Below are positions 1 through 48,866 of a stretch of DNA of 64,000 nt, one piece after another; within the stretch, counting starts at the first letter, position 1, and each line of letters starts with the position of its first letter. The notes beneath the pieces are model-generated. The model made no database searches. It was not told the origin of the DNA and worked only from the letters and a program-made list of their open reading frames with translations. The stretch is from the NCBI RefSeq assembly GCF_004010195.1, contig NC_057758.1:8225353-8289352 (forward strand), written 5' to 3'. Both the position numbers and the translations under genes were made by a program. This DNA comes from Chiloscyllium plagiosum (Eukaryota).

Positions 1-515
1 GTATTTACCTCTGAGCCACCATGTCGCTCCAACCTCCATTATCTGCAATATTCTCATATTCTCATTTAACTGTAATTTTATATATTCTAGCCAATGTTAA
101 AGACTGACTTGATTGTAGAATCTAACTTCTTAATTGTTGAAGCGTCTGACGATTAAATGTGATCTGTTAATATTGCTGGCCTGCCACCTAATCTTATTAT
201 TCAATCGGTGTATCAGTTTACACGACCAAGGGTTCTGTGCTTATGATTCAGTTTTTTTGAGTGTAGTAAATACTTTGGGTGGAAGGTTTGCTGTCCAGTT
301 ACTCGCTCTTTAATTAATTTGCACGAAATTACAAATTCGTTCACTCAGCAATTAGTGAGAATTCACATCAAGGATGTAAAGTTAACTCATTCTCTAATGA
401 GGCAAGCTTGAGGAGTTAATGTTAATCTACTTTTTCGCTAGTTCTTCAATTCCTCGACAGAATGTGGGAGAAAGTAAGGTTTTCAAACAAATTATGGCTC
501 TGATAAAGTAAGTAA

Positions 516-2420
516 ATGTGCCCCACTTCGCCAATGATTGCTTGCCTTCTCGAAGCCAAGCTTGAATCCTTGCGAACATCGGGTGAGTTCTTACTTAAAC
601 CATTTGCTATTCATGTTTCAGGTTTTGTTGAAGTCCATTTCTGAGCTTTTGACAATTTTTCTTTACAGTAGACTGACAAATAGGGGTGGAAACTACATGG
701 ACAAATGGCGAAATGCGGAAAGACTAAAAGAGACGTGGAAGTGGCTGATGAAAATCTCATTCTTTTTCGGTAATCTGGGAACACTAAATGTTTAGATATT
801 CCTGTCTTGCAAAGAAAATATCAGGCATGTCATATTTTCACAATTGTAATGTTGATGACAGCTCTCTGTTCAATACCATTTTCAAAGAAGAGAGATCTGA
901 AAATTCCGAGGTCAGACTTCGGCCCGACGTTTTCCAACTATATACTGAGCTTCCTGACCAGACGATGGCCCACTGCATCTCCTCCGTCAAAACACTCAAT
1001 ATTGGCGCCCCAAAAGTTGGGTCCTCAGCCCCTTAACGTCCACCGTGCACATCCACGGCTGTGTTGCCGAACGAACGTCATCTTCAAATTTGCTAACGAG
1101 ATGTCCATGCGAGGAAGGATGTGAAAAAATAATGAGAGATCAGCAGAGAGAAAGGAGATCGAGGGTTTTATTATGTGGTACAATGAAAATAATCTGTCTC
1201 TCAATGTTGGCAAAACTAAAGTACTGATAATAGATTTCAGAAAAAAGAAGAGGAGAACACAACCCCATCTATATCAACTGAGTTGAGTTTAATAAATTTG
1301 ACAGCTTCAATTCCTCAGCATGATGATAACTGATAATCTGTCCTGAACTTTCCACACAGATGGGAAAGTCAAGAAGATTTCACGACGCCTCTTCCTCCCC
1401 AGGCGGCGCAGGAAATTTGGCTTCTCCAAAACAACCCTCACCAACCTTTATAGCTGCACCATAGAGAGCATTCTGCCAGATGCACAACGGCCTGATATGG
1501 CAACTGATCTGCGCAGAACCGAAAGAATCTTCAGAAGGATGTGTGCACAGCTGAGACGATCACGGAATCCAATCCCCGATTTATGGGCTCTATCCTCAAG
1601 CCTCGTTGCCATGGAGATGTTGCTAACATCATGAAAGACCCATGCCACTCGAAAATGCTCACTGGCAGCAGTTTCTGTCAGGCAGAAGATACAGAAGCTT
1701 GAAAACACGAACTAACTGGTTCAAGTGCAGCTTCTTTTCTGCTGTTATTGGACTGATGAATAAAGTCAACTATTGCTCAACATTTTAATCTTGATCTTGC
1801 CTCGTATATGTTTTGTGTGTCGTAAAATGCATGGCTTTATCTGTCCAGGTTGTTTCAGTCTATCATCTGCATATCCTTGATTACTATGATATATGTGTGC
1901 TGTTCACAAAAATGCTTTTCACTGTGCTCAGTTACACAGGATTATACGAAAAATAAAATAAAACCAAGTGAAATCATAGTCCAGAAAAAAGTGGAATAAT
2001 ACTGTGATGTTCAGTTGCAACAGTAAAACACATTTTCAATAAGAAAGGAGGGTTCAAATGTAAGTTATCAGGAATTAAGCGTAAACAATTGACAGCACTC
2101 GCAATATCCAACAACCACAGTCGCTGTTCTCTTCTTGTCGTATCTTGAGTATAAATGTGACCAGAAATGCGTAAAAATCGATGAAATTGGAAAGCAAATG
2201 TGAACTGAACAAAACAGGGCAGTGCCAGAAGAAACACAACAACTCTGAATACATACAAAAAGGTGATGTCGAAGAATGAAACTGGGGTATTAAGAACGCT
2301 AATTCTGTCCAGTAGGAGATTGAAAATTACAAGTGTTAGATGTGTTGATGGCATTGCCACATTAGAAAGGATTCAGTTTTCTCGACTGATGATCACAGTT
2401 TAAATTTGGCAGGAAATCAA
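516..2420 (+). pseudogene. Cys-rich defensin-like pseudogene B1 (exons ~516-582, 669-769, 2141-~2420)
   Basis: ATG516 opens MCPTSPMIACLLEAKLESLRTS, then G|GTGAGT (phase-1 donor; degenerate signal peptide). A 101-nt exon lies between TTTACAG and GTAATC. The last exon (acceptor mutated to GTCG) reads YLEYKCDQKC..ESKCELNKTGQCQKKH..YKC*MC*WHC and is homologous to 2931-3251 on the minus strand. Stops and a frameshift are present. Confidence 0.55.
905..1790 (+). mobile_element. Degraded Rex1/Babar-like non-LTR retrotransposon RT fragment
   Basis: Frame-broken RT motifs: YILSFLTRR, TLNIGAP, CVA, IFKFAN, SLNVGKTK.LIIDFR, followed by a 3' region. Confidence 0.7.
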
Positions 2421-2930
2421 AGAGCCAGGTTTCCAAAAGAGTTCTGTGTAAAGTTAGTGATTTATGCCATTTTACTTTATTCTACTTCCAAGGAAAAACT
2501 GATGATTGTAATTGAGAAGTGGAGGAAAATACCGTCGTGGTAAACAAAGTTAAGAATACATTTCCTGAGGTAGCTGAGATTCGGAAATGGCCTAAAGTAT
2601 GTCTTATATGAAGTTTCACTTGGCTAAACTATGGTCACTAAACTATTCTCTCATGCAATTACCTTTCATTTTCATTTATTGTAAATACAACAAGTTATTA
2701 GATGATGAATTATTTATTGACTGAGTGTCCCTTATCTATATTCCAGGGAAAGAATACATATATGTTTATGGCAGCTGAAACTGTAAGAGGCACATTATCA
2801 TGCTGAATGATTGTAAAAACAGCCTCATGGTATACACAGTTTGTTCCATTGAACATTGAAGAAAGTTAAGCGAAACGTAGTCTCTTAACGCTGTCTGCGT
2901 GAAAAACTTTCGAGGCACATCTCCTCAAAC

Positions 2931-5526
2931 TTATTCCCTCCCTCCCACACTCTGAACCTGTGCGCCCTTGCAATTGAAACTGTGATCCTGATTCAAAAAT
3001 ACTGAAACCTCTATAAATACGTGCCTTGCTGCTTGTTGGCAGTGCCAGCAACAGATTTAATACTTGTCATTTGCAATGTTCTGCTGGACTGAATTAACAA
3101 TGTTCATTCCCCAGTTGCAATCTTGGACATCACCGCTCTGTACGCATTCAGTATTGGTCCATTTCTTATGGCCCTGCCCTGTTTTAGTTGGTTCACACTT
3201 GCTTTCACAGTTGATGGATTTACATTTCTGGTCAGACATAAAATCCAGATACTACAGGGAGAGAATAGCGAATGCGGCTGTAGGATGCTGCGAGTGCTGT
3301 CAGTCTGTTACGCGCAATTCATGGTATTTTGTATTTGAGACTTCTTTTATTCCTTAAAATGTGCCGTGATTTTGCATCTTAACAGTATTATTCCGCTTTC
3401 TTCTGATCAGTCTATGATTTGATTTGATTTGATTTATTGTCCTGTGTAACTAAATATAGTGAAAAGATTCTTTGTGTTCAGTAGAAGAAGATCATAGAGT
3501 GAAATCTGACGTGCAGATGAGAGGGGTTAAAAAAGTTTCCAGAGTAACCCATGCATATTACAACACACAAAACGGAGACGCGGCAATATCAACATGTAAA
3601 TGCTTGACACAAATAAACACAGATCGAATAAAGTACATCTTTTCCAACTGATTATAAGATAATTCTAATGTACATATTCTAGATTTATACTGTATGTACC
3701 ATCAGATATAATGCAGTGTGAGTACTTATCCAAGATAATTACACGTCACACTATATTTGTCTGATGGAAATAAAAAAAGAAATCACTTACCCCGATGTTT
3801 CTAAACCTAACTTCTTGTATCTCTCAGTGAAGGATGATATAACAAAAAGTGACTAAACCAAACTTTGCTATGCAGTGTACTCATATTGTAATCAGTCAAA
3901 ACTGTGGCAAATGAGAACAGATTCAATGGATCATCAAGACTGGCAGGTATATTTATGTGTGGCGGTCAGTTGACACATAAAATATGATGATAAAGAAAAG
4001 ATAATCACCGAGTGACTTCCATCGACATCTAATCATTTAATTTATGTATTTTCAATAGAACATTCGTAAACGCCCTCAAGGATACTTATCAAGCATTTTC
4101 TTTCAACCAATTAGATTAGATTACTTACAGTGTGGAAACTGGCCCTTCGGCCCAACAAGTCCACAACGACCCTCTGAAGCCAACCCACCCATATATTTAC
4201 CTAACCTGCACATCTTTGGACTGTGGGAGAAAACCGGACCAAACCCACTCAGACACGAGGAGAATGTGCAAACTCCACACAGGCAGTCGCCTGAGGCGGG
4301 AATTGAACCCTGGTCTCTGGCTCTTTGAGGCAGCAGTGCTCACCACTGTGCCACCGTTGCAGCCACACATATGCCATTATATGTAACAAAGGAAATCATT
4401 TAGAGCAAATGTTTTATTTTGGAATTACATAACTTCCACAGTGTTTATGAATCTGTCAGATTTCTGTAGTCTGAGCAAAACAAGAAAAGACTTGCCCGTT
4501 CAGCCTCTGGGAGAATGACTTCTCTTGGAAATGAGTAAATTCTGGCAAACATGTTAAAATTTATTCATGAACATTAAAACACAGTTAAATATTTTCTTAC
4601 ATAACCAACACTGGAGTGATAGTTTTACAAGTAACACCAACAGCTGCAAGTATAGGGTAAAACATACCCTCTGTCTGTTAGATTACTGACTACTCCAAGT
4701 TGGCTCTTATTTTGTGGATTCACTGATGGTTACTGCTGAAAAAATAGACGCATATTCAATGCAAGTCACTTTTATATTGAGCAATCGCTCCCGTGATATT
4801 ACTAATTTGTTTGAGTGTCACACTATTAATTTAGAGTAATCGAAACAAGAATAAAATCAACTGCGTTGATTTCAAATCACGTTCTATGATTCTCTGTCGA
4901 ACCAGATTATAAATTCTACATGTGCCGCATACAAACTAAATCAGACACTCAATGCAAAGTGGGGTATACGGTCACAAAATTAGGAAATCTCTTGCTGGAA
5001 AAGCCATTCAGTCGTTGCAAACGCATGTGCAGAAGAAGAGTCAGCTAAAGTCTGGATCTTACTGTACGTATGTCTATCTTTACCTTTCTTCCAAATGGAG
5101 AGAGTAATCAAGAGACACGGAGTAAGAAATGATCTGTATGGAATGATTTGGATACATGACATGTGGTGGACAGATTAACATGAGGAAGACAAAAATACAT
5201 ATAGTGGGAAAGGCATTCGGGATGCGGTGACCAGAGATGTGCAGTGAAACTTTAAGGTGATTTAACAACAGTTTTCCGCTGAAAGCAACACCCGAAACCC
5301 AGGGAATACATGTCAAGTCGAACAGAATTACTTGAGGGAGGAAAGAAAACAGTAAACATTCCAGTGTAGAATTCTTTACTGGGACATTGTGCCGGCGTTA
5401 TTTCAGATTTCCAGCGTCCACCATAAGTTACTTTATGCTTAATGCTTTGGAGAGATTAAAAATGCAAACCTTCCAACACAACCACCTTCAAAAGCAACGC
5501 CATTCCCACTATCGAAGGTCTTCCAT
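2931..5526 (-). pseudogene. Cys-rich defensin-like pseudogene B2 (exons 5526-5470, 5133-5084, 3251-2931)
   Basis: Signal-like exon M/GRPSIVGMALLLKVVVLE+G|GTTTGC (1-nt frameshift). A 50-nt exon CAG|...|GTAAAG (phase 1 to 0) ends in GRK. A phase-0 exon after CCCTGTAG reads YLDFMSDQKCKSINCESKCEPTKTGQGHKKWTNTECVQSGDVQDCNWGMNIVNSVQQNIANDKY*ICCWHC. The splice phases are mutually consistent. Confidence 0.65.
4112..4362 (-). mobile_element. HE1-like tRNA-derived V-SINE
   Basis: Reverse complement of ggtggcacagtggtgagcactgctgcctca...gtgtggagtttgcacattctcc, with an aatct tail. Confidence 0.85.
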
Positions 5527-6079
5527 TCTCATGTATTGGGCGTGTGCTCGTTATGTTCGATTGAAAGATGACCTGTTCTGAATCATTGACCAGACCTGAC
5601 ATAGTTAAATATATATTGGATGAGTGGGCAATGAACTGATGGAAAGTAGGGATGAATAATAACTTCTGGCCCAACCAATAAGCACATCGTTCTTTATCAT
5701 AGCGATGAAAGAAAACTGTTTGCAAAATTTCCGCAGTGGTATGAATAGTCTCTTGTATTGTTTGATCAACTTAACATTGGACACGATTCTCTTTGAAGTA
5801 CCGGCTAATATTCTCCTTGACTGCTCTCTTACCCGCTGAACTTGGATACTTGAACTTGAACATGACATGGAATTTTATTTTTAGCAGTGGTTATGGGGCG
5901 TGTGTTTTACTGGTTGGCCAGCATTCATTGCCGATCCTTACTTCCTTTCAGAACACGGTGATGAGCATACATCTTGAACGGCTGCAGGCCAACAATGATA
6001 TCAGGAAGTGATTTTGGCCCAGCGACAGTGACGCAACAACTATATAGTTCCAAATATATTTGCTGTAGATCTTCTGTAG

Positions 6080-7270
6080 GATTCAGCCGTTGTAGCATTG
6101 GATCAGAGCCGGAACAACAAGCGAGTAAGTGCAGGGAGTAGGGACAAATGTGAGACTGTGATAGGCATAGGTTAGAATTAGAATAGGTGGAGTGACGTCG
6201 CTGGGCTCGGAGTGACTGGAGGAGACAGAGGCACAGATAGGTAGTGAGTTAATGAAAACGTTTGGAGAAAGCAGGGTACTTGTGATTTGTGACGTTAACC
6301 GTTCTGTTATTGATTGGGACTCGCTTAGACCCAGGGGATCAGATGGAGACAAAATTATTGGATGTGTCCAGGAGGATTGCTTTTGAGACAGTACATTGAC
6401 AATACAACGAGAGACGAGGCCATACTAGACTTGAGATTACTGAATGAGGCAAAACAGTTGATCAGTGTTTCAGTAGGAGAGCGTTTTGGACTGAGTGACT
6501 ATAATTTCAGAAGATTTCGAGCAGTCATGGACAAGAGTGGCCGTCTGATGAGAGTGTTAAATTCAGAAAAGACCAATTGCGTTTAATTAGATAATGACTG
6601 GTGAATGGGGATTGGACGGTTATTTGAGGGCCAATCTGTGTCTGGAAATTTTGAGGCCTGACAAGATTCGGAATTGTGGGTAACAAGGCGAATTGCAAGC
6701 TTAGTTAAAAGGGGTAAAAATAAGAGTACAATATATCTAGGCAGTTACAAACTGACAAAGCACGTTGGGAGTACAGAGTAAATTAGTAAGGAGGTTAAAT
6801 GTGGAATTAGGAATCCTAAAAACGACCACGAAATGTCTTTAGCTAACAGGGTCAAGGAGAATCCCAGGACTTTTCATGCATAGATGAGAAACAAGAGTAT
6901 AGCAAGGAAAGAATAGGCATACCCGAGAATAAAGGGCGTGCAGTTGAAATTATGCATGGACCACAAAAATTGGAAATATGTTTCATGAAAACATTGCATC
7001 GGTATTCACTAATGGAGATGTGCGAGGGAAGAACTTCCAGCAAGATGGGTAGGAATCTGGAACACACTGCCACATGAGATGATGAAAACAATCACGTTGG
7101 CAATATTTAAAAGCCATTTGGATCATTACGTGAATAGGGAGGGACTAGAGGGATGCAGACTGAATAAGGACATAAGGCTTGTGTTTTATTTTAATGAGGG
7201 CATAATGTTCGGCGAGGGTTTGGAAGGCTGAGTGCCTGTCCCTGTGATATACTTCCTTTTGTTTGTTCTA
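6080..7270 (+). mobile_element. Degraded, internally deleted CR1-clade LINE (endonuclease region joined to 3' end)
   Basis: Motifs LRQYIDNTTRDEAILDL, VGERFGLSDYN and RVKENPRTF, then a CR1-like 3' tail. Inverted copy at ~59985-61080. Confidence 0.75.
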
Positions 7271-8680
7271 AGTCAGGATATGAGTGGCTTGGAGGAAACC
7301 TTGCAGGTGATAGCTCCCCCATTAATCTGCTACACTTTTTCTTGTAAGGCAAATTTGTTATGAATTTTGACAGTGCGATCTGAGTGAAATTTGCTGAATT
7401 TTGACATGAGCTTTCGATATAAAGTACACACTATTGCTCCTGAGCTTGGGCGTTCGAGCGTTTGGATAGTTGGGAATATAATGCCATTCATGCACTGCTT
7501 TGTCCTGGATGGTTCAAAACTTCTTAAGTGTTGTTACAGCTGCACTTAACCACACAATGATGTGGTAGCCCATCACACTTATGATCTGTACCTTTTAGAT
7601 TATGTAGAGGCTTCGGGGAGTTAAGACGTGAGTTATTCGCCACTGTATTTCTCGTTTCTGATCTCTTCCTGTCGGTAATGTGTTTACGTGGTGAGTCCAG
7701 TTGAGTTCCTTATCAGATATAAAGCACAGATGTTCATTTTGAGGACTTATTGATTGTAACAACATTGACTGAGTCGGGTCAATTGTTAGATTGTCTCTTA
7801 TTTGTAGGGGTCATAATTTGGCATGTGCACGACGTGGTTGTGACATGCAACTTGTCAGTTGAGGGTGTGGTTCCTGAAACGACAGCAAACCAGGCAACGT
7901 TCGAGGAGCAGGAATATCGATGTTTTGGGCAAAAGCCCTGAGGTAGCGCTTTAGTCTGAAACGTTGATTTTCCTGCTCCGCAGATGCTGTCTGGCCAGTG
8001 GTGCTTTTCCAGACCACACTCTGGGTTCTTATCTCCAGAATCTGCAGTCTTCTGTTTGCCTTGCCACTTGTCAGCCTAGCCTAGACATCGTACTCATATT
8101 GTTGCATTTTAAAATGGATTGCTTCCGTAACTAGGTAGATGCAAATTATGATGAATATTGGGCAGTCATCAGCAACATCCGTAATCATGACGTTATGGTA
8201 GAGTAGCTGACGATAATTTAGCCTTGGTCACTATCCTGAGGAGAGATGTTCTGGTTCTGAGATTACTGACCTCCAACAAACTTGACATTTGGCATATCTT
8301 ATGATTATCAACCTAACCAATGGATAGTTTGCCCCTTGATATCCATTGACACCAGTTTTGCGACCTTCATGTCAGCTCTGAAATTTAGTTTATTTTGTCG
8401 ATGTTTGAAACAAGTCTGAACAGTAATTGGATCTTCCCCAATCCTTTCCTTCCGTGTCACTGAGTCTCATTTCTGAACAGTCTCCCATATATAAATCAAG
8501 CACTCACAACCACCTTGTTAAGGGGGAAACTAAAGTTGGGCAATAAATGCTGGATAGCCAGAGATGCCCACGTGGCATGAGTGAGTAAAAAAGATGCATG
8601 TCTGTAACTTCTCCGCCCATTAAAACTGATTTCTGATTGACTTATTTTTATAATTCTTGAACAAGATTTTATTAGAAGAA

Positions 8681-8683
<3 letters not shown>

Positions 8684-8762
<79 letters not shown>
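8684..8762. repeat. (CA)n microsatellite
   Basis: Seen directly. The paralogous tracts at 47412-47424 and 58452-58520 differ in length. Confidence 0.98.
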
Positions 8763-8766
<4 letters not shown>

Positions 8767-8829
8767 GAGTTATTTTTCAAAAGCTGCTGTCGAATGCGAG
8801 ATTAACACTGATGTTTTCTCCTGTGGTAG

Positions 8830-9360
8830 TATTCCTTTATCTCTTCCCAGTGTTTCTCGGATGGGGGCACATTCAAGGCCCCCATCTCTGCCATCGGTCA
8901 CGTTTTGTCCAATGAATTCTTGGGACCCGAGAATTGCTCCAACCGACTAGAATCTCCTCCATTGGTTTGCCACATTGCAGCCCACTCTGGATGGTTCGAC
9001 CCTCTCGTCAGATAGACATACCCAGAAGATGGTTTGGAACTGTCAGGGATGATGGTTTGCATTCTCACGGGATGAATGTGTTAATGAACTTGTCTGTTGG
9101 TCAGTGAGGGCACGGAATAGCTACAGGAATCAGACGTATCAATATAATCGTCTCGCCATTTTGTGGTCATCCTGGTATGTCTGGAGATCTCTGTGCAGAG
9201 CAACCCTTGCTCAATTTCCTGCTTCTACCCCTGCCATGTTTATTCCAACCTAACTCACCATCATTCAGCAAATCATGCTGGATTGCACTTGTGTATGTGC
9301 AGGATTACATCAGAACTGACTCTCCAACAGTGTGGTGCTCCACCAGATCTGGCTTTCCAG
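8830..9360 (+). pseudogene. Decayed exon D1 with ~3 tandem beta-defensin-like motifs
   Basis: Reads QCFSDGGT[F]KAP..ENCSNRLESPPLVCH; KKMVWNCQG*WFAFSRDECVNELVC[W]; VCLEISVQSNPCSISCFYP..KSC[W]. Missing Cys positions are often one base from a Cys codon (TTC, TGG). Frameshifts are needed. Confidence 0.45.
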
Positions 9361-9884
9361 TACCGAGTGCTGACCTCAGTGCAGCCCATCCGACAGACTG
9401 ATTTTTTGCTCCCTCATTACTGACACTTTGACATGACTGTGCTCAGTGCAGCTCAGAGCGGCTTGTAAATTCTCATGACTCCCCGTTCTATTCAAGTTAC
9501 ACTGACACTCCGATAATACGGCGCTCCCACAGTTTTAGCCCGTTGACAGTGAGATCATTTTCTCAGTGTGAGCTCTCGGAAACTGCGGTACTCTCTTGTT
9601 GGTCAACCTCGACTCGCTCACATTCATTACCACTGACGCCTGACAATGTGAAGCCCCATTTGCACTTAGCAGCTGCTGATACACGCATAAGGGACCATTG
9701 TCGTTCACTTGGTCATTAAGCCTGTTGCCTCATTCCATAGAATCATGCGATTGTGAAACTTAAATGCAGAATTTGACCATATTGCTCCTGGACATGCTCC
9801 AACATTTGATCAGAGCTCATGCGTTCCAACCGACCACACCCCTATGGTAACTCGTGATCGGCTTACCAATCAAGAGCCTGTCTA

Positions 9885-10750
9885 TCTGGATACTGACGAA
9901 GGATTTAGTAGGTTGCAGAGGGACATAGATAGGATGCAGAGCTGGGCTGAGAGGTGACAAATGGAGTTTAATGCGGACAAGTGTGTGGTGATTCACTTTG
10001 GCTGGAGTAATCGGGATGCAAAGTACTGGGCGAATGGTAGGATTCTTGGGAGTGCAGATGAGCAGAGAGATCTCGGTGTCCATGTACACAGATCCATGAA
10101 AATTGCCACACAGATTGACAGGGTTGTTAAGAAAGCAAACAGTGTTTGGACTTTACTAATAGAGGGATTGAGTTGCGGAACCAGGAGATTATGCTGCAGC
10201 TGTACAAAGCTCTGATGCGGCCACACTTGGAGTATTGTGTACAGCTCTGATCACCGCATTATAAGAAGGATGCGGAAGCTTTGGAAAGGGTGCAGAGGAG
10301 ATTTACTAGGATGTTGCCTGGTAGGGAAGGAATGTCTTACGAGGAAAGGCTGAGGGCCTTGAGGCTGTTCTCGTTATAGAGAAGAGGGTTGAGAGGTGAC
10401 TTAATAGAGACAAAAAAGATAATCAGAGGGTGAGATAAGGTGGACAGGGAGAGCCTTTTTCCAAGTATGGAGACGGCAAACACGAGGGGACACAACTTTA
10501 AAGTGAGGGGAGATAGGTATTAGACAGATGTCAGAGGTAGTTTCGTTACTCAGACAGTAGTAAGGGTATGGAATGCTTTGCCTGCATCGGTAGTAGATTC
10601 GCCAAGTTAAAGTGCATTTAAGTCGTCATTGGACATACATGGAATGGTGTAGGTGGGATAGGCTTCACATTAGTATGATAGGTCGGCGCAACATCGAGGG
10701 CCGAAGGGCCTGTACTGCGCTGTAATGTTCTATGTTCTATATTCTATGTT
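9885..10750 (+). mobile_element. 5'-truncated CR1/HER1 LINE 3' end
   Basis: LQRDIDRMQSWAER, MEFNADKCVVIHFG, EQRDLGVHVH, RPHLEYCVQ; tail of (ttctatg)n repeats. Confidence 0.9.
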
Positions 10751-11274
10751 CCTTTCTTAAATGCTCTCAATGACGTGGCCTCCCTAGCCTTCTGAGCAAT
10801 AGGTTTCACGATTCGCCAATTCTCTGCCTGAAGAAGTTATTCCTTAATCAATTCTCGAGGTGTGCCCCGTTACTCTGAGGCTTTGCCCTCGGATCCCAGC
10901 CTTTCCCAAAGACGGATACATCTTCGTCATGCCCATTCTATCCAGGTCGCTCAGTATTCTGTAACTTTTAATCAAATCCCTGATCATGGCTGATTTCATT
11001 CTAAATCATATTCCTCTGCATTTGCGATAATCTTTCATTCCTTGATCTTGAACAGTGTTCCGCCCTCTGTGTTTTCTCTCTCTCTCTCTCTCTTTCTCAA
11101 TTTCTCCCTCCACCCCCCTTCTTTTTTCTCTCTGCATGTATTTGCTGCCAGAATAGTTCGGTTTCTCTGTGCAGAAAAGTCCAAGCAGACTCGAAATGCT
11201 AAGTCTGATTTCCTCTCTCTACGCTAAAACTGCCAGACGTCCTGTGCTTTCACCAGTGTTCTCTGTGCATTTGG

Positions 11275-11605
11275 CACCGAATGCGGCATGGACAAGGACT
11301 GGTTAACAGTTCAGCTGGTTTTAAGTTACACCTCGCGGGGAACATCGGATTAAGCAGTCCGACCTTACATAGATTCCACAGTCAACTTAAGAATCAACTG
11401 AAGTCAGTATCCCCATAGCTCTCGTGCGGCACTTGTGTCTGATATCGTCGATTCTTGCAACAGTGTTCTTCAGGCGGGCACAGCCTCAGAACAGGTTATA
11501 CTTTAAATGTTGGGCACACATTGACTGAACACATGCCACCAGCATTTTTACAGTCATTTTCATAATCGGCAAGGAAGCAAACAGTTTGTTCGTCTGTTCT
11601 GCTCG
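11275..11605 (-). pseudogene. Beta-defensin-like exon A1 (complete six-Cys domain with an internal stop, plus a decayed second domain)
   Basis: Polypyrimidine acceptor TTCCAG|CG (phase 1). Reads ASRTDEQTVCFLADYENDCKNAGGMCSVNVCPTFKV*PVLRLCPPEEHCCKNRRYQ = C-x6-C-x4-C-x11-C-x5-CC with GGxC and CP; TAA at 11498-11496. Second motif: DCGIYVRSDCLIRCSPRGVT*NQLNC*PVLV/PC[R]. Confidence 0.8.
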
Positions 11606-11639
11606 CTGGAAGCATGGGGGAGAAAGTCGAATTCCAAGA

Positions 11640-13500
11640 TCACAGAATCCCCCAGAATACTTCGGGCGCACTCGGACGCTATTCGACCGGCTGTGTACAC
11701 TGCTGTTCTATCCCCTGATGTAAACTTCGTGACTCTTGCCCCAGCTCTCTGCATCTCATTTCCACACCAACAAATACCCGACTTCCGTCTTGAAAGTATT
11801 GCCTTGAGTATACCTCCAGGCCATGACGTGGCCTTCCGAACTTGCCTTGAGTATACCTCCAGGCCATGCATTCCAGACCCTAAGTACTTACTGGGTGGAA
11901 AAGATCTTACTCTCTTTATTATTGTTTCATTTGCACCCACCTTAACGATACGACCATACGCCCTTCTCATTGTTGATCCTTTTACAAATGGTAAAGCCTT
12001 CTCCCTGTGTACACAGTTCAGCTGCACGCCATGATTTTGAAATCTCCGTCATATCTCCTCTCAGCTATTTTCTCTCCAGGGAAAGCAGTTGCACCAGTTT
12101 ATTCTTTCTTTGCTATTGTCTCCCTTTGTCCTACCAAAGTCTATTATCTGCGCACAGATACATGCATGTCCCTTTGCGCCTGCCCCCCTTTAAATTTCTG
12201 CCACCTGTACCATGCAATCCCAATTTTATATTGCCTTTCAGTGATCTTCCAATAAAGTGCATCCCCTTTCACTTCATTGAATTGAAATGTGTCTACCTCT
12301 TACCTTCCAACTCTACCAATTTGCCAGTGTCCTTTTGAATCTCTGCACTGGCCTTCCCATAGTTTACAGTTCTACCAGGTTTCGAGTCATCTGCATGCGT
12401 CTAAATTGTTAACTGCTCAGTTCTCCAGATGCAATATCACTAATGCCCTGTATTACTGAAGTATAGACTTCCTCCTTTTGCATTTTTTTCCTATGTTAAC
12501 AATACAATATTCTCTAGACTGTATGAATCTGTGAGTCTGTGTGATCTGCATAAAAAGAAAGTCAAATTTATGGTCGAGCTGATTTCTCTTCTCGTCGGGG
12601 TATCGAGTACGGCAGGCTATAGTGTGAGAATAAGGGACTTCAGAATTAAGACAGAAATGTGCAGAAATTACATCTCTGCAAGCTTGAGACTCAATTAAAT
12701 TTGCCAACTCCTCTTTTATCCCTCCAGTAGAAGATATCCTTCCCGTTGCGTGATGACCAGGAGTACACACAATATTTCAGCTGTGCCCAAACTGAAGTTC
12801 TGTACAGATCCAACAAAACCTCCTGCTTTTATAATCGATGTCTCGAATGGTAAAGACAACACGGTCCTTCTTAATTCTACCATTAACATGTGGACACGCC
12901 CCGAAGATTTCTCTATTCCTTTGAGCCTACTCATGACCCAGGAATCATGAGTACTCTCCTACCTTGATTCTTCTTCCCAAGAGCGTTTCCTAAACTTATC
13001 GATGTTAAATCCAATTCTGCACTCATGTTCAGAACTGTCTTATTGAGTTATTTTTCTTTCGGGCTATCTTTCTGCCATCCACAAATTTGGAAACAGTATC
13101 TCACGTCCCTTTGTGTGAACGGTGTTGAAAAACAGCAAACATTTGAGGGTTCAGCCGGCCACTTTCTGTTGCATGACTTGTAAAGTTGAACACGCAAGAT
13201 GCCAACCTCCTGTTTACATCCTGCCAGAGCAATCATTCTTCTCTCCATGCCTGTATATACCATGCTTGCACACTGAACATACTATATCTGCGCAGGAGCA
13301 CCTTATATCCAGCCTTCATGAAATTTACTTACACCACGTCCAAGGGTTACCTTCTGTCTACAATGCGCGTTGTCAATGAACTCAAAAAGCTTCCTCAAAC
13401 CATGATCATTCAACAAACCATGTCGTTTTTACAATGATTGCCTTTGAAATCATCCAAATGCTCTGTTACAAATTCCTAACAATACATTCATTGAGACAAA
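11640..13500 (-). mobile_element. Nested degraded CR1 fragments in the intron of pseudogene A
   Basis: An SKFADD-like RT remnant (VSKFVDGRKI), LRGDM motifs, and a CR1 3' tail ending in attctgtga just upstream of the exon A acceptor. Confidence 0.7.
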
Positions 13501-14179
13501 GTTTTATCTAACTCGGTGAGACCCAAGCAACTGCAATTGGTGAAAATTGAGAAATGGGACATTTGGAAATCTGGTGGTGCCGAAAGGGAGGGGGAGGGTA
13601 GGTTGCATTTAAATAATTCAAAAACAAATGTTATTGAAATTGAGGCATTACTTGAATATACATACAGAACAACATCAGCATATCTGTGACTATTGCTTGG
13701 CACAGGCGAGCCAATTCCAGTCAGTGCACATGGAGCATTTTGAATCATTTCGGTGTAGTGGAGGTAACAGAGTTGGTTTGCTGGAGGGAAGGTGCAGGGA
13801 ACATGCCAGTGTCTCATTATGATAAATGATCCCAGCGTTAACCGTGTTGTGTGAGAGGCGAAGAACAAGGAAAAGGAGAAGGATAGGCAATCGATCAAGC
13901 GAGTGATCATTTGATGCAATCATGGCTGATCTTTTCCCAACAGCCAACTCCACATTCCAGTCCCATCTCTTCAGCTGAAGTCAGGTAAAAATCTGTCCAC
14001 CACTTCTTTATGTTTACTAGTATCCCGGCATTCACTGCATCCCGCGTCAGTGAGTTCCACCAATCGATGGTTCTTTCAGAAAAAAAAATCTTCCTCATCT
14101 ATGCTCTGAATTCATACCCTTTGTTTTAAAACTTGGACCTATCCTTCTACAAATCCCGACCTGAGGAAGCATCCCTTTT

Positions 14180-14481
14180 GGGCGGTACGGTGGCACAGTG
14201 GTTAGCACTGCTGCCTCACAGCGCTCAGAGACCTGGGTTCAATTCCTGACTCAGGCGACTGACTGTGTGGAGTTTGCACATTCTCCCCGTGTCTGCGTGG
14301 GTTTTGTCCGCTTGCTCCGGTTTCCTCCCACAGTACAAAGCTGTGCAGGTCAGGTGAATTGGCCATGCTAAACTGCCCGTAGTGTCAGGCGTAGGGGAAT
14401 GGGTGGGTTGCGCTTCGGCGGGTCGGTGTGGACTTGTTGGGCCGAAGGGCCTGTTTCCACACTGGAAGTAATCTAATCTAA
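14180..14481 (+). mobile_element. Full-length HE1-like V-SINE
   Basis: tRNA-like A/B boxes (tggcacagtgg, ggttcaattcc), V-domain gtggagtttgcacattctccccgtgtctgcgtggg, and an aatct tail. Confidence 0.9.
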
Positions 14482-15138
14482 TAATCCATTCTACGTACAC
14501 TTGCACAATCGTACTCACCATTTTTCAGACTCCGATTTGACTGCTTAAACTTTCTTCATAAGACAAATGTTCACTAATTGACGCAGTTGACTGAAACTCC
14601 TCTAAATTGCCTCCAGTATAACTATATACCTTCTCAAGTAAGGTGATCCAAATTCTCCGCAATATTCCAACGGCAGAGTCATTGATTCCTTCTACAGTTG
14701 CAGAAACACACTTCTTTTATAGTAGATTCGTTTAAGAATAAATTGGAAACACCAATTTATTCCTTCCTCCGAGGTGCTATCAACATTTGAGCGAATGTTA
14801 GATCCAGAGTGAAGTGGCTGCATTCTGTGCTGGAACAATTTTTATATCTTTTACATTCAACTGACTATTTCTGATAGAAGTGGTATCAGTTGGAAGTTTG
14901 AAAAAGCTGATTTCAATGTAAGGGGGTTGCCCAGATAATCACACAGAAGAGCGGATGGAAGATGTCAGGAGTAAGCAATGATTGGTGTGCGGACCACTGA
15001 CAGAAGTGTTCACTACTGGAAGAATATTAATGAATAAATTGCGAAACTCATCATGATCCAACAGGCAAACTCTGGTTTTATTTTGTGAAAGTGAATGATT
15101 TTTAAAGGAAATTAAATGAATTTAGGACCCTGTCTCAC

Positions 15139-16239
15139 TTCTGAAATAGTTTTCTGCGATGTCGGAATTGAGCGATTGAATGGCCTTCTCATATACCTGC
15201 GAAAGATGCAGTGGTATAAAAAATAATATGGATCTTCGATTTTGGGAAGTAAGAAAAGTGCATCAGAAGCAAAGGACAAAAAGAGCATCAGGAAAGAGCA
15301 CCATGGGCTCACCGATCTCGGGACTCATAGCAGAAGCAGTAATGCAAATGTTAGAACAAACAGTCTTTCCACAAATTCAACCCAAACTCTGGGTCAGATA
15401 CGTTGATGACACCTTTGTAATCATTAAAAACACGGAAATAGAGAATACACACCGGATCATCAACTCCACACTCACAGGAATCCGATTCACGAGAGAGGAA
15501 GAAAAGGACAACCAACTCCCATTCCTAGACGTGAGGGTAGAGAGAACACCAGACGGAGAATTCACCACTAAGGTAGACAGGAAAGCGATACACACAGACC
15601 AAGCCCTGAACTATGAAAGCAACCACCCCAATACACACGAACGAAGTTTCATCAAGACACTATTCAAAAGGGCCACAACACACTGCAGCACACCAGAACT
15701 GCAAAACGAGGAAGAGGAACACCTATACAAGATATTCGCTAAAAACGGATATCCTCGCAATTTCATCAACAGATGCCTAAGGGAAAGACAACAGATCGAG
15801 GACATGCAGCAACCCAAAGGACTAGCCACACTACCATACAGCAAGAACATCTCTGAAATGACAGCCAGACTACTGCGACCACTAGGACTTATAACAGCAC
15901 ACAAACCAACAGCCACTCTCAGACAACAACTCACCAAAACCAGCCAGGGAATTCCTAGAAGCATGGCACTCATCCACAAACTCCATCAACAAACACATAG
16001 ACCTGGACACAATATACCGGCCGCTACAGCGGACAGCTGAAACTGACAACCGGAAGCGGCAGGGACAGGCCACTATAAATGCCGGAGGAAACACCACAGA
16101 AGCGCTTCACAAGAGGCTCCCAAGCAGTGAGGATGTCACCGAGACAGGGGACGAAACGTTTGCAACAAAAACTTCCAGCTCTGCGAACAGAACCACAGCA
16201 GCATCAGGAAACGTATTGCGAAGGGTCCTGCCATCAACA
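15139..16239 (-). pseudogene. 5' exons of pseudogene A1: signal-peptide exon split by a Penelope insertion, plus a 58-nt exon (15196-15139)
   Basis: Removing the insertion restores MLMAGPFAIRFLMLFLSFAS. Downstream, TTTCGCAG|VYEKAIQSLNSDIAENYFR+A|GTGAGA. No intact donor follows the signal segment. Confidence 0.5.
15296..16199 (+). mobile_element. Penelope-like element, 5'-truncated and internally deleted, with 12-bp TSD
   Basis: RT motifs MGSPISGLIAEAVM, WVRYVDDTFV, FTREEEKDNQLPFLDV and LNYESNHP. The sequence jumps to an EFLEAWHS tail, so most of the GIY-YIG domain is missing. TSD agcatcaggaaa at 15284-15295 and 16200-16211; empty site at 41148-41159. Confidence 0.92.
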
Positions 16240-20980: not shown

Positions 20981-21379
20981 CTGAACATTAAAAGCAAGGA
21001 TCCTGTCGATGGTAGAAGAATGCACAATACTTCAGCTGCCGATTACGCAGTCACGTCACAGCCACAACTGTACAAACCCGAGCTTTTAGCTGTAAGACAT
21101 CTTAGTACATACGATATTACCAAAAAATCTAACCTGAAGCTATGCTGCGTGCACTTGATCTTAATATGTAATTCTGCATGTTTTGGGACTAAATCCTTTA
21201 TAAAATATTCTAACGTGTTACAATATGTACTTTTCTCTTTCTAAATCACCCTGTGAACAGTATGCCTGCGTTTGCAATGATCTGCCTCTACTGCTCACAA
21301 AACAAATCTGTTTCCACTGTACGTAGGCACATTTGACAACAATAAATCAAATCAAATCAATGAAACACATTATGCAAAC

Positions 21380-24819: not shown

Positions 24820-27800
24820 CGTTTGATACCTCTGTCTCTCCATGTGGCTGCACACCGCAGCAATGCAGTTACCACTGACCTTCTCTATCTCGACATTGAG
24901 TCCAGATTCACAGCTTTGTAGTCATGACTCAACTGCTCCCTGTCTCCAAATGTGACTTTGGCTAACAGCATTTTGTTATCATTTTACTCTGTGTCTCTGC
25001 ATGTGATGCAAGAACAATAGTACTGTGGTTAGTACTGACTGTCTCTGCCTGGTTACGTGACTCCAGACCCACAGCACTGTATTTGCCGAAGATGTGTTCT
25101 GTATCTACATGTAAATCCTGGGCAACAGTATTGTGACTATCAGTGACCTGCTCTGTCTCTGCATGTGACACCAGAACCGCAGCACTGCCCTCCTCCAGAT
25201 CTAAGCGGGACATCTGACTTAGTGTCCTGTGTGGAACTATGATCAGGAGTGTCCATGCACTGACTCCAGGTCCAAAGTATTGCGCTCATCACTGACATAT
25301 TCTGTTTCTTCATGTGATTCCACACCCACATCACTGTAGTACAAATTTACTTACTCGCTCTCTACTTGAGTCACGGGTGCAAGTACTGTGGTGATCAGAA
25401 ATCTTTCCTGTCTCTACAGATAACTCCGACACACAGGACTTTGCGTATTATTAACCTGCTCTGACCTCTCATGTCACTCCACCCGCTGCATTGTGATAAC
25501 CATCAATATGTTACGGACCTACACGTAATTCCAGATTCGAAGCACTACGTTCATTTCTGACATGCTCTGCCTCTACATATGACTCCTGGTCCAAAGATTT
25601 GTGTTTACCATTAATTGCATTGTCTCTATTTGTGAATCCATACCCACAGCGCTGTTGTCACCAATGACACGTACTACATATGATTCCAGGCCAACCTCAC
25701 CATGCGATCCATTGACTTGCTCCATCTCAACATCTTCCACTAGACGCATGATTTCTGATGAAGGACTGATGCCCAAAACGTCTGTTCTGCTCCTCAGATG
25801 CTGCCTGACCTGTTGTGCTTTCTCAGCAACACACTCTTGAATCTTCAATGCCTACTACTGACTTGTTCTGTATCTGCGTATGACTCCAAGTACAGCACTG
25901 TGGTTTTCATTGACCTGCTCTGACGCCTGATGCATATCCGAAATAAAACAATATTGCAGTTGCCACTGACATGTCCTGTCTCTGGATGTAACTTCAAACG
26001 CACAGCATTGTTGTTCAAAATGACCTGCTCTGGAATGATGTAAATGCAGATCTAGAGTATGGTGGTTGCTATTGACCGTTTTTGAGTCTACATGTGTCTC
26101 CAGGTGCTGCAATCCACATTGAACTTCTTTTTCTGCATACGAAGTCAGATCCACAGCACTGTGGTTATCACAGGGCTCTCTATTTTTTACATGTGACTCT
26201 AGGTCCACAACACCTTTGTTATCACATTTTTTCCCCTGACTCTGTATGTGATTCAAGGCAGACAACACTGTGTTAACACTAACCTTCTCTGTCCCTGCAT
26301 GTCACTCCAGACCTACAGCACGTGTTTATCACAGACGTGTTCTATCTTTAAGTGAAACTCTTGGCCAACAGCCATGCAGTTATCACTGATCTATTCTGTC
26401 TCTCCGTGCAACTTCAGACCAAAGCATTGTGATTACTAATGCCCAGCTCTGGGTCTACATGTAAAGTGAGACAAAAGGTATTATGAAGACCTCCGGCCTG
26501 CTGTGTCATTCCATGTGACGCCAGAACCATAGCACTATTCTTATTATTGGTCTCTTCTGCCTCTGCATGTCATTCCAGACCCACAGAACTGAGTTTAACA
26601 TTTACTTTCAATTCTCTGCATGTGGTCTCGGGCCCACAACACAATGGTTTCCACCGACCTGCTATCTCGACATGTAAACCTGGGCCCCCAAACCTGTCGG
26701 TGCGTCGGACCTACTTTGGACTGACATTTCAGACCCGTCCTTAACACAGTGGTGATCACTAATCTTCTATGTGTCTGCAAGTGACTACACATCCGAAGCA
26801 CTCTTGTTGTTACTGATCTATTCTAATTCTATGCTTGACATGAGACGTACAATGCTCTTGTTCCCACTGTCCTATTCTGTTTCTGCATGAAACTCCTGGC
26901 CAACAGCACCTCGGTTGGGACGCAACTGATCTGTGTCCGCATGTGTGTCCAGAACCACAGCACTATGGTTAGCACTGATCTATTCTCTCTCGAAACCTAA
27001 CAGCTGAACAGCAGTGGTTATCCCTGACCTGTTCTGTCAAAGCACGTGACTCCAGACCGACAACTCTGTGGATTCTACGATCCTGCACTGATCTCAAATG
27101 TAACTCCATGTCCAAAGAACTTTGGTTACCCCTGACCAGATCTGTGTCTACATCTGACGCCAAGCATGTAGCATTGTGGCAATCACTGACCTATTATGTC
27201 AATAAACGTGACACCACATTCACAGCAATGTGATTACGTTAGATCTGGTTTGGGTTTGCAATTTAATCCAGACAACTGCACTGTGATTCATATTGAACTG
27301 TTCTAGACCGCCATGTGACTCCAGATATTCAGCTCCGTGTTTGGTACTGAACTGCTTTGTCTCTCCAAGTGGCTGCAGATCCACAGTACTTTTGGCTATT
27401 ACTGACCTGCTCCATCTCTGCAATTATTTCCAGACAAATAACACTGTGGTTCACATTGAACTGCTCTGGGAATTACTTGTGACTCCAGATCTTCAGAACT
27501 GTGGTTACCACTGATCTGCTCTGTCTCAGACTGATAGTCGGAGCTCATAGCACCGTTTGTAACTCTGACTTGTTCTGGATCCAGGTCAGGATGTGACTCC
27601 AGATGGTCAACTTTGTGTTTAGCACTGACCTGTTGTGTCTTTGCATCTGAATCCAGACCAAAGACCTGTAGTGACCACTGACAACCCTGCCTGTACACTT
27701 TGCTCCAGATCCGTAGAACTGAATGTACTCCCAACATAGGCTATCTCTCCAGGTGATGTCAGTCTCACAGAATTGTATTTGCAAATGATATTTTTTGTTC

Positions 27801-28125
27801 TACGTTTGGCTCCAGCCGCAGCTATGTGTTAACCACGGACCTGCTCTCGACCTACTCACCATTCCAGACCGACAACACTGTGAATACCATTGATCTGCTC
27901 TGTCTTCACATATGACAGTGAACCCACACACGGTGGTTACACATGTTCAGCTTTGACTCTGCATATGGTTCTAGAAAAAAACAACTTTTTGGTTGTCACT
28001 GACCTGCTGTGTCTCTGCATGTCATTCCGGCCTACATGACTGATGTTACCATTGACTTGGTCTGCATCTGTATTTGACTCCATACCAAAGTGTCATGGTT
28101 ACCACAGACATGCCCCGTCTCTAAG
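24820..28125. repeat. Degenerate 54-bp tandem satellite, left part
   Basis: Approximate consensus gactccagacccacagcactgtggttatcactgacctgctctgtctctacatgt recurring every ~54 bp. A short TE interrupts it at ~25740-25850. Confidence 0.9.
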
Positions 28126-32320: not shown

Positions 32321-32409
32321 GCCGCATCAGGCTGTGGGATTTCCCCAGACTCGATGGTTTTACGCATGTGAGCCCCCCCCACCCCCCCTCCCCCCCCCCC
32401 GCCACCACC

Positions 32410-32815
32410 GGCCAACAGTGATGTGCTCATCACCGACCTGCTGCATCACCAAGTATGACCTCTAGACATACAGAACTGCGATTACTACTGATCTGCTCCA
32501 TCTCTACAAGTAAATCCAACTCCACAGCACTTTGATTCCCAATTATCTGCTCCAGGTCTCAATATGACTCGATACCCACAGCGCTGTGGTTACTGCTAAC
32601 CCACTCAGTCCAAACATGTGACTTCATGCTTAGAGGACTATGGTTCATATTGACCGTCCAATGTTACATGTGATCAAAAGCCGAAGTACTGTGGGTATCA
32701 CTGGCCTGCTTTGTCGCTACATGTAAGCCCAGACCCACAGCACTGTTCATGTTCTTGACCTGCTTTGGTCCTAAATATCACACCAGACCCACATGACGAT
32801 GGTTGCGACTAAACT
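32410..32815. repeat. 54-bp satellite, right part
   Basis: The same unit (ccagacccacagcactg) resumes after the CR1. Confidence 0.85.
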
Positions 32816-34555: not shown

Positions 34556-35563
34556 ATAGAATCGTAGAATCAGAAAATGTAGGTGAGGCACTTCAGCTCA
34601 TTGAGTCCACACTGTGAAACGTTACTCAAAGTTTATACTTGCCACACATTCCAAAACTTAACGTGTAGCCTTTAATGTTTGGACACATCGTGTGGCTCAT
34701 GCAAGAACTTTTCAAGGATTGTGAGGTTTCCCAACTGAGGTAACTCTCAGTCAAATAATTCCAGACACCACAATCCTCCCGGTGAAAAGTTTTCTCCTCA
34801 ACTTCCCTTCAAATTTTTTACCTTTCAATTTCAAATTATGCCAGCTCGTTATTGACGTTTTGACAGAGGGAAGCAGCTACTTACTGATCACTCTGTCCGC
34901 ATAATCGTGCACACCTCAAACTGTTCATCCCGCTACCTTTTCTGCTTCAAAGCAAATAAACCGAGCAGATCTTGCTTCCCTTTGTTGCTAAACTGATCCA
35001 TAGAATATAGAAATGTACTGTGCAAGAACAGCTGGTTCTGCCCACAATACTACCATTTTAAACTAATTCTATCTGCCTGCACGCAGCTTGTTTCCCTCTT
35101 ATTCTACTCGTTCATTTGTAAATCTAACACATTTTAAGCTTTGCTATGATATCCAGTTCAGCCACCTCTCCTGGCAGAGTAGTCCCGTTACCTACATCCC
35201 TCCCTGTAAAAAAAACTTTCCTCATATATTTCCATATGTATTCCCTACACCTTAAATATATACCTACCTATATTCGACATATCCGCCCTGGGGGTAAAAC
35301 AGCTCTGACTGGATAATCTTACCTCGCATAATTTTTTGTGCTTCGGACACTTGCCCCCCTCCTACTCCCATAGTCTAGTGAAAAAGATCCAAGGTTTTGC
35401 ATTCACTCCTTGCAGTTAATCCTCTCCTATCCTGCCAAACCCCTTTTGGAACCGCCCCAAAGTCTCCATTTCATTCATACACTGTGGCGATCCGGTCTGA
35501 ACATGGTCTTCTGACTGCCGTGTAACCAAATGTCTACACAGCAGCTAAGCTGCAACAAAGACA

Positions 35564-36330
35564 ATGTCATCGCGGTATCCTGCCTATTCTCTGACCGTTG
35601 CTTCCGTCTCTGTCATTATGTTAGAACTATGATCTGACTGGGAAATGAAATTTGGACAACTTATGTTTGTTGATGTCTTTTAGTTTTATTCATATGTGTG
35701 AGAAAGCAGTGCGTCAGGACTCATTGTATTAAGACCATGAAATGAAGATTGAATGGACAGATCTCTCCATTCGGAAACTCAAAGGCTTTCCAGAGGTGCA
35801 TGTTTCCTTTTCTTCATCGCGGGAAAGAAAGGCATGCAGCACACTTAGAAGTGTGGGCATGCCCCATCGGTCCTTACTGAAATTGTCTCATTACATGGTA
35901 CTTTACTGCAGTAACTTCGCTCTAAAACACATGGAATGATTGGATCTAGGAGACAGAACAAAAGAGAAAAAATATTCTTCAATGTTAACATTCCACACAC
36001 AGGACATCCTCCTGTGGTCTCACTGGGGGGCATAAAGCCAGAAAGTGCAGATTGCAGTCTCTCGTTTCTAATAGTAATTTGTTGGGGTCGCAGCAGTACA
36101 TATTACTTGAAGTGGTTTCCATTATTGTTTGTGAATACCAGACCTGCATGCAGTGCTGCAGCTCTGACCTGCTATTGATATAGTCGATTGGGAACTGATC
36201 AGTTTGTTCACAGTGTGCAAATAGTTAGGAAGACGGACTGCAACGTTTCTGAGCACTTTGCTTCAGGAAGTGAGAATCGATAGGAAACATCAGCTGGCTT
36301 AAAGGTGAACACATCCCCTGGTCCGTAACT
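35564..36330 (+). pseudogene. Defensin-like pseudogene E1 (signal-like 35564-35626; Cys exon from 36003)
   Basis: MSSRYPAYSLTVASVSVIMLE, donor lost. ACACAG|GA (phase 1) then GHPPVVSLGGIKPESADCSLSFLIVICWGRSSTY[Y]LKWFPLLFVNTRPACSAAALTC[Y]*. A second decayed motif follows. Confidence 0.55.
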
Positions 36331-37455
36331 CAGTGACTTCATTATTCAGAGAGTTGTTGGGAAATGGAACATCGCTGCCAAGGAGAGAAGTGGAGGCAGA
36401 TTCGACAGATGCTTTCAAAAGAGAATTGGATATTCATTTGAAGGGGATGAATTGAGAGGGATATGGAGGTAGGGATGGAGAATTGTGTTAACTTTGCAGC
36501 TCTTACTGGAGCCGGGGCAGAAACAATGGATAGAATGGTCGCGCTCTGAACTGGAAATTCTATGATTATTATATGATGGGCAGCTGATGAAGCCTTGCTC
36601 AAAGCGGGGTGATTTCAGACCAATCTTAAAGGTGGAAATAGACGTGGTTAGTGTTAAATAATTTCTTGTGCAACAGACTTCTTGAGGCACGGGCAGCATA
36701 GACAGTTTTAATAATACAGCTTAGATCAAAGAAGACCGGACTTGGCGGAATTCAGATATTGTAAAAGCGTTCAAACTGCAGCCACTGCAGATATCAGACC
36801 AACTACACCCACAACTACAATTTCCAGGCTTTTCCCAATACTTCAGCGATTCCCTTACTGCTTGAAAAATCTGTCAGTCTCACCTTTGAGCACACAATTC
36901 TCTTGGGGAGAGAATTGCCTGCATTTACAACAATCCAATAGAAGAAACTTCTCACCAAGAATGTTTTAAATTGTCAACACTTCATTTTAAGACGAGGCTC
37001 TCTGGTCCTACATTCTCACATAAGATCAATCGACCTCTCACCAGTTAAACTGAAAAGACGTTCAAGAGTCGTTTATTCTTCAATAAGCTCACCTCTTATT
37101 CTTCGAAACTCCAACGAGTACTCATCTAACCTACTGAACCTCTCCTGATAAGACCGTCCCTCCATAACTGGCATCAGCCCAATGAACTTTCTGTGGTCTG
37201 CCTTTCTTCAGGTACGCTGCCCGAAACTGTTCACAATAGTCCATTATGCCGACTCGAGTGGTGTTTACCTTCAGTGAAACCTCTAGCATTTCATAATCCA
37301 ATCCATTTCAAATTAAAGTCCTCAAAGCCATTCGTATATTTAAACAAATCTGGTGAACTGTTTGCAAATGCTTCTGCGACAGAGATATTATTACACAACT
37401 TTGGAACATGTAGAATTTGAAACCTCCATTGCACCACGACATTCCCCCTTTCACT

Positions 37456-37760
37456 TTAACTGGGGTACTTACAATTTTTCTGGCCTTCCACCAACACAAG
37501 CTTTCCAATCAGCAAAAGCAGTGTCAACCACTTCATCACTGTTGTGGCGAGAGGAAAAATGACAAGACTGGAACACAGATCATCATTTTATGGTTTCAAA
37601 GATGGTCCTGTTTTTCATCATAGACATAACTATGACTGGCATCAGTTTGAATTATGAAATTAACTCACTAACTGAGACAGGGAGTGAATGGAACGGAAGT
37701 TCAAAGCTATCTCCTTAAAGTTTACATGATGTACCGAACAAAGTTACCGGCCTGAGTAAT
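37456..37760 (+). pseudogene. 5'-deleted defensin-like exon F1
   Basis: QKQCQPLHHCCGERK; lacks the ~283 bp present in the paralog at 50763-51045. Confidence 0.5.
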
Positions 37761-38279
37761 GAGAGAACTAAAGAAGATCGAAATAATTTATTTATAGGAA
37801 ATTAGTAACACGGTGAACCCGTTTAGTTCCTCGAATCTGCGCAGCTGCTCGGAAGACCATGTATATTATGTGGGTGATCTCCATATGCCTGCCTTGAGAC
37901 CACATCCCTTGACATACTTCCTTAATAAAAATGTGTCTATCTCAGATTTAAATGTAAGTATTAAAATATCATCAGCCGCCATTTGAAGATGACATTTCCT
38001 AACCAACACTACTCTCTCTGTGTAGAAGTGCTATCTATTACCTCTCCTGAATGACTCTGTCAGAATTCTTAAATAATTTGGACATTGCTTACTGGAACCA
38101 GCATTTATTGCCTGTTATTAGTTGCCCTCTCGAGAAAGTGGTAGTAAGCTGCCTTCTTGAACTGGTGCAGTCTGTGTGGTGCAGGTTGACTTACAATACC
38201 CTTCGGAAGGGAATTCATCCCAGCACAATTTTTGACTTTTAATTCAAATTGTGGACATTGTTTCTGTTTATCTTCCCTG

Positions 38280-38570
38280 ACTTTCGCTACTGATTCCCTG
38301 AAGTCGTTGATTAGACCACCCTTTTACGGTTCAGATTCCAGAGATGAAAAGGCTCTCATCATTTTCAGAAATTAAGACGTCATGTCCAGGGTTTGTGCTT
38401 ATGCCCTTGTAATGACATCTTTCCAGTGCCTAAAGCTCCTTCCTGAAGACGTTGACAGAGGAAATGGTTTGTGTTTCGGGTATTCCCAGAGGGTTGGAGT
38501 TCTGTTGCTATCCGTTGTATTTTCTAACGGACTCTGTCAATGGAGAATGGAAGCAGATCTCGAATGACAA
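38280..38570 (+). pseudogene. Decayed defensin-like exon G1
   Basis: RVCAYALVMTSFQCLKLLPEDVDRGNGLCFGYSQ/RGLEFCCYPLY with one frameshift. The acceptor is uncertain. Confidence 0.5.
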
Positions 38571-48757: not shown

Positions 48758-48866
48758 CCCCAAAGTCTCCATTTCATTCATACACTGTGGTGATCCGGTC
48801 TGAACATGGTCTTCTGACTGCCGTGTAACCAAATGTCTACACAGCAGCTAAGCTGCAACAAAGACA

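Follow-up and report, generated by a model that had tools for sequence, protein, structure and literature searches.

Probable decayed duplicates of a small cysteine-rich gene among defensin-like pseudogenes of the shark Chiloscyllium plagiosum

Our analysis of a 64,000-nucleotide stretch of Chiloscyllium plagiosum DNA (RefSeq contig NC_057758.1, positions 8,225,353 to 8,289,352 of the forward strand; below, the window) supports, as the explanation that we consider the most probable, a reading whereby three related segments, here called copies A, B and C, arose by duplication and decay of a single small gene, of three exons, whose secreted cysteine (Cys)-rich product matches no family searched and which sits among defensin-like pseudogenes. 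Copy A (1777-2406, plus strand) lies tail to tail with copy B (3607-2972, minus strand), with 565 bases between the arms, and repeat finding and local alignment put their identity at 71-77%, about 75% overall (blastn E 2e-79), which bears out the inverted, diverged homologs described in the initial annotation. Both copies stop at codon 65 of the third exon (TAA 3059-3057 in B, TAG 2337-2339 in A), ahead of a CC-x2-C element and an SVF..DHS.N tail. That annotation had joined these parts into the consensus of a peptide with about ten Cys; the tail is indeed common to A and B, beyond the stop, but none of the three copies codes for a peptide with 10 Cys.

Copy C and the 360 non-coding bases that the A/B homology takes in besides the exon were both absent from the initial annotation. 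Identical columns number 202 of 262 in the exon part of the alignment, 115 of 156 in the intron part (160 bases) and 141 of 191 in a repeat tail of ~200 bases. The non-coding parts are these:

1980-2140, plus strand: end of the A intron, 74% identical to B, with CG at the acceptor position (2139-2140)
3252-3607, minus strand: end of the B intron plus repeat tail, homolog of A 1777-2140
860-1979, plus strand: old retroelement-like fragment in the second intron of A (nhmmer)

From its look we take the fragment at 860-1979 to be a long interspersed nuclear element, an unconfirmed label for which Pfam gave no match; both B and C have its last 200 bases, which are found once more at 21249-21360 (nhmmer). 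An Rfam scan of positions 1-6500 of the window returned 0 matches.

Copy B has three candidate GT-AG exons with phases 1 then 0, which under the predicted splicing leave 101 codons open, while A retains a more damaged set:

5162-5084, minus strand: candidate exon 1 of B, signal-like, 26 codons plus 1 base (79 nucleotides), phase 1, donor GTAAAG
3822-3791, minus strand: candidate exon 2 of B, short pro-piece, 32 nucleotides, phase 1 to 0, donor GTAAGT
3251-2931, minus strand: exon 3 of B, acceptor intact, open for 64 codons that include 5 Cys
2476-2718, minus strand: candidate poly(A) signals of B, three AATAAA at 2718, 2680 and 2481
21-96, plus strand: candidate exon 1 of A, signal-like, 25 codons plus 1 base, best 9-residue hydropathy 2.71
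556-582, plus strand: candidate exon 2 of A, 27 nucleotides, AG...GT, ending in phase 1 and out of step with exon 3
2141-2406, plus strand: exon 3 relic of A

Exon 3 of B starts behind a pyrimidine tract and a TAG acceptor (3251), and its frame continues behind the stop through CC-x2-C and the tail to a second TAA at 2933-2931; its net charge is -1. The acceptor of exon 2, GAG, is weak. Exon 1 of B is among five stretches found when both strands of the window were scanned for an ATG, a hydrophobic run and a phase-1 donor, a custom scan in which a stricter threshold narrowly excluded it; two of the five are signal exons of six-Cys defensin-spaced genes. The claim that both genes have three exons with phases 1 then 0 thus stands, by sequence, for B but fails for A, and the segment that was presumably meant by a pro-exon of B ending in the dibasic RK (5133-5084) holds an in-frame TGA when read from phase 1 to 0, a frame other than that of exon 1.

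In A, the start context of exon 1 is perfect (GCCACC precedes the ATG) and the frame is hydrophobic, and the donor is dead (G followed by TT in place of GT). Exon 3 of A follows the CG acceptor, carries 4 extra bases near 2170-2190 that shift the frame, and contains in-frame stops at 2277-79 (TGA), 2313-15 (TAG), 2337-39 (TAG) and 2346-48 (TGA). A makes no product today. Its upstream exons show no significant likeness to those of B by local alignment (p 0.16-0.86) and no match by nhmmer; a likeness of the first exons appears only in an anchored alignment picked post hoc (p 0.007-0.016), and for the second exons an anchored alignment, likewise chosen post hoc, gives a weak p 0.02. Their divergence greatly exceeds that of the 630-base block, which suggests a conversion tract or the duplication of only part of the gene.

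The frame of exon 3 was probably once coding, as judged from the pattern of substitutions. Changes between A and B fall 10/18/32 on the three codon positions of the B exon frame (chi-square p 0.002). In the unambiguous blocks (78 codons, with the columns of the second gap and six codons at the frameshift left out) they fall 10/16/27, with 27 of 53 at third positions (p 0.006; p 0.013 under a composition-matched null with base types fixed), and the adjoining intron, serving as control, is flat (13/15/10, p 0.61). The same frame has one stop in B versus 3-10 in each of the other five. A reading-frame signal in the divergence, for which a test was proposed in the initial annotation, is present; the ratio of nonsynonymous to synonymous change (dN/dS), about 0.53-0.59 between A and B, counts among the signs of decay. 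Readings on the opposite strand were rejected for their greater number of stops and lack of an acceptor, although the antisense frame does share the third-position signal.

Several results weigh against decay of a once-coding gene. Amino-acid identity between A and B (44/78) is close to the neutral null of 42.1 (p 0.29) and the BLOSUM score is no more decisive (p 0.10), so that the coding signal comes down to one statistic. Exons 1 and 2 were selected because they are open. From the other side, the first 64 codons of B exon 3 are without stop or indel, which is unlikely under neutral drift (chance about 0.29 x 0.19) and fits a recent function of B. Taken with a dN/dS of about 0.55, amino-acid identity and BLOSUM scores no better than the null point to selection after the duplication that was brief or weak.

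The same results bear on a reading in which no host gene is involved and a duplicated non-coding stretch, or a transposon piece by a retroelement tail, acquired its frame signal and exons by chance. It would account for an exon that, up to the stop, is kept no better than non-coding sequence (76% vs 74%, p 0.61), for amino-acid tests without significance, for a homology block that starts within the repeat tail and for a 64-codon open frame, which arises at p about 0.045 per frame. However, the third-position excess sits in the frame with the fewest stops and starts at an acceptor, 71 codons of B exon 3 hold 8 Cys (p 0.014), and the exon occurs in only 3 copies in the 64-kb window, all inside local duplications. 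Moreover, phmmer with B against 1,835,955,588 protein representatives (1.84 billion) gave 0 matches at E 0.001. We therefore regard a non-genic origin as very improbable.

Copy C, at the far end of the window and truncated there, is 93% identical to B (697/747 columns):

61985-62075, plus strand: exon 1 of C, 7 bases shorter than in B
63380-63411, plus strand: exon 2 of C, 32 nucleotides, last codons R-N-I-R
63952-64000, plus strand: first 49 bases of exon 3 of C, up to the window end, 48/49 identical to B

The ATG of C that matches B's (62004) runs into a TAG, and an upstream ATG (61985) keeps the frame. The R-N-I-R end of exon 2 has the form of a minimal furin-type motif. C sits in an inverted segmental duplicate (91-95% identity) that takes up the greater part of the window. 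Segmental duplicates, inverted and direct, pair 3203-15300 with 64000-41148 and 35455-39640 with 48758-53223 at 91-96% identity; the region holds two 500-base gaps, and some of these copies may be haplotypes that the assembly kept separate.

The union of A and B comprises 11 Cys at exon codons 6, 10, 15, 19, 27, 36, 45, 64, 67, 68 and 71 (spacing 3,4,3,7,8,8,18,2,0,2), of which 4 are in both copies, 6 in one only and 1 is ambiguous; codon 4, one base from Cys in both copies, could be a twelfth. The nine-Cys pattern first given for the pair turns out to be this union minus two B-only Cys, with only four positions shared. Nor are the Cys conserved beyond chance, since each copy retains 3/6 of the other's against neutral means of 2.6 and 3.2, which is unlike the divergence of a living disulfide family, and neither copy retains what a functional gene would have, an open frame across the whole Cys domain together with conserved Cys. 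What survives of the proposed subfamily of secreted Cys-rich peptides is a set of old paralogues, probably once coding for a secreted protein, but not a living subfamily with about ten Cys.

The probability that B's stop coincides by chance with one of the stops in A is 0.07-0.15, making an early shared stop or conversion likelier. The shared stop could also be the true end of a gene that is still alive in B, and perhaps in C: as predicted from sequence, B could yield a precursor of no more than 101 residues, with five Cys encoded by exon 3, the mature part being 64 residues long and CC-x2-C and the tail being left over in the 3' untranslated region. B is open to the stop with canonical splice sites, C is open over 57 visible codons from its upstream ATG, the lesions ahead of the shared stop are all in A and none in B, and poly(A) signals are found on the strand of B only (the plus strand holds no AATAAA at 2400-2980). 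B has also lost exactly three upstream Cys, the number cut off by the stop, as if bond partners had been released, and the low chance of coincident stops favors this view as well. Yet the Cys count would be odd, C has lost B's start, and even beyond the stop, where there is a net indel of 18 bases, substitutions tend toward third positions (2/3/7, p 0.07). A single-sequence model of the 64 open residues, uninformative without relatives, gave a predicted local distance difference test score (pLDDT) of 48 and a predicted template modeling score of 0.24. On balance we consider a living, shortened gene unlikely.

In the preferred reading of decayed duplicates, exon 1 of the working form would have encoded a signal peptide, exon 2 a short pro-piece and exon 3 a disulfide-bonded domain of ~105 residues with at least 11 Cys, which might have formed five or six disulfides. 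The charge of -1 argues against membrane lysis by a cationic peptide, and partner binding outside the cell, at a surface or in a secretion, may be the likelier role of the ancestral protein. An inverted copy of a block of at least about 630 bases would have arisen long ago (about 0.3 changes per site), and the nonsense codon ahead of CC-x2-C, shared by both copies, may have inactivated the gene at an early stage, with mostly neutral-looking change thereafter. A would then have collapsed while B retained its frame up to the stop, and a recent 12-kb segmental duplication would have produced C.

The setting is that of a beta-defensin cluster. The window contains five six-Cys exons with defensin spacing (C-x6-C-x4-C-x11-C-x5-CC), 8-55 kb away and each with an in-frame stop:

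11567-11397, minus strand: six-Cys exon, spacing 6,4,11,5,CC, in-frame stops, CG at the acceptor AG
44628 onward, plus strand: second copy of this exon, with the same features
55792-55962, plus strand: third copy of this exon, with the same features
37536-37473 and 35946-35782, minus strand: two-exon gene, one exon a clear signal exon, the other a six-Cys exon with defensin spacing
51126-51063 and 49257 onward, minus strand: second copy of the two-exon gene

Both two-exon genes carry the same TAA two codons ahead of CC. An acceptor AG read as CG occurs in two unrelated exon types, at 2139-2140 in A and in the exons at 11567, 44628 and 55792, probably by chance. Degenerate tandem arrays with units of roughly 55-60 bases and many weak self-matches lie at 24850-28100 and 32400-32800.

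This neighborhood makes it tempting to see in the ancestor a strongly stretched beta-defensin with extra Cys, comparable to variants with 8 and 10 Cys in the Komodo dragon cluster and close to the stretched defensin core of the initial annotation. One of the three six-Cys exons scores with Pfam Defensin_beta (E 0.096, below the cut-off), the signal-like exon 1 of B is in phase 1 like the signal exons of the neighbors, CC lies near the end, and defensin clusters include odd spacings such as 3-10-16-6, according to PMC6716921. However, no six-Cys subset of the union fits even a widened C-x5-7-C-x3-5-C-x7-13-C-x4-7-CC, the nearest being 8-8-18-2, whereas the 10-Cys variant described in that source retains a normal core with the extra Cys behind it. 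Blastp of the exon against the three six-Cys neighbors gave E 0.37 or worse, Pfam had no match on 12 frames or on 2 exon frames (E up to 10), and the only match to sequences in the PDB, at E 0.2, is expected by chance; the Pfam Defensin_beta and Defensin_beta_2 profiles are weak on this lineage, in which 1/3 of the six-Cys neighbors tried scored. A stretched defensin is, in our estimate, improbable. Word-index protein searches with exon 3 of B and of A gave no matches, and since the control, a neighboring defensin-spaced exon, was blank as well, these blanks say little. An Atlas search with the 64 open residues of B gave no usable match, and a literature search over a library with few subscription papers gave nothing on a shark defensin cluster or an A/B peptide. 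A word search of sequencing runs listed no RNA run among the holders; 4 of 16 rows from one study had 25-33% of the words, which is not evidence of expression.

We tentatively suggest, at somewhat less than even confidence, that the copies are what remains of a hitherto undescribed family of secreted shark proteins, near-neutral in charge, with 11-12 Cys and signal, pro and mature parts. Such a family would be neither defensin nor any Pfam family and would still have intact members, either elsewhere in the same defensin-rich region or in rays and other sharks. Antimicrobial peptides of the shark lineage are little studied, as PMC6795676 states. The pair of broken genes illustrates, on a small scale, how genes are born and die in a defensin-rich region of a shark, and the exon, whose Cys pattern is unmatched in the libraries searched, is useful as a probe; an intact relative, if found, would be a new disulfide scaffold.

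Among known systems, beta-defensins (PF00711, PF13841; in the Komodo dragon VkBD6 with 10 Cys and VkBD16-18 with 8) share with the A/B gene the six-Cys defensin-spaced neighbors, a signal-like first exon in phase 1, a Cys-rich last exon with CC, and birth and death by local duplication. Their motif is given as C-x6-C-x3-5-C-x8-10-C-x5-7-CC in PMC6716921, and their three-stranded fold with disulfides C1-C5, C2-C4 and C3-C6 in PMC9138766. The A/B exon instead has 8-8-18-2 before CC, not 6-(3-5)-(8-10)-(5-7), with five more Cys in front, an extra pro exon, about 105 residues, a charge of -1 and no profile match. The avian double beta-defensin AvBD11 (Cx6Cx5Cx9Cx6CCx9Cx6Cx6Cx7Cx6CC in PMC9138766) also has about 12 Cys in about 80 residues within a defensin cluster, whereas its two CC-ended domains are on separate exons and the A/B domain lies on a single exon with a single CC. 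The spacings of ovodefensins are at odds with the A/B exon. VWC/chordin, IGFBP, TNFR, glycoprotein hormone alpha, somatomedin B, prokineticin and resistin were set aside on spacing as generally described. The hinge and ion-channel regulator of CRISP proteins has a Cys run of 3,4,3,8,8,8 and a terminal C-x3-C-x-C; the first spacings of the A/B exon, 3,4,3,7,8,8 (2141-2280, plus strand; 3251-3117, minus strand), resemble this run, which we take as a lead only, while its end differs (18,2,CC,2), no CAP domain exons were seen and Pfam gave no Crisp or ShK match. Finally, agouti and AgRP have three coding exons with phases 1 then 0, ten Cys and a CC-x2-C; no Agouti Pfam match was obtained and their CC-x2-C comes early, with five Cys after it, whereas here it comes last, but the exon phases and the CC-x2-C element itself are alike.

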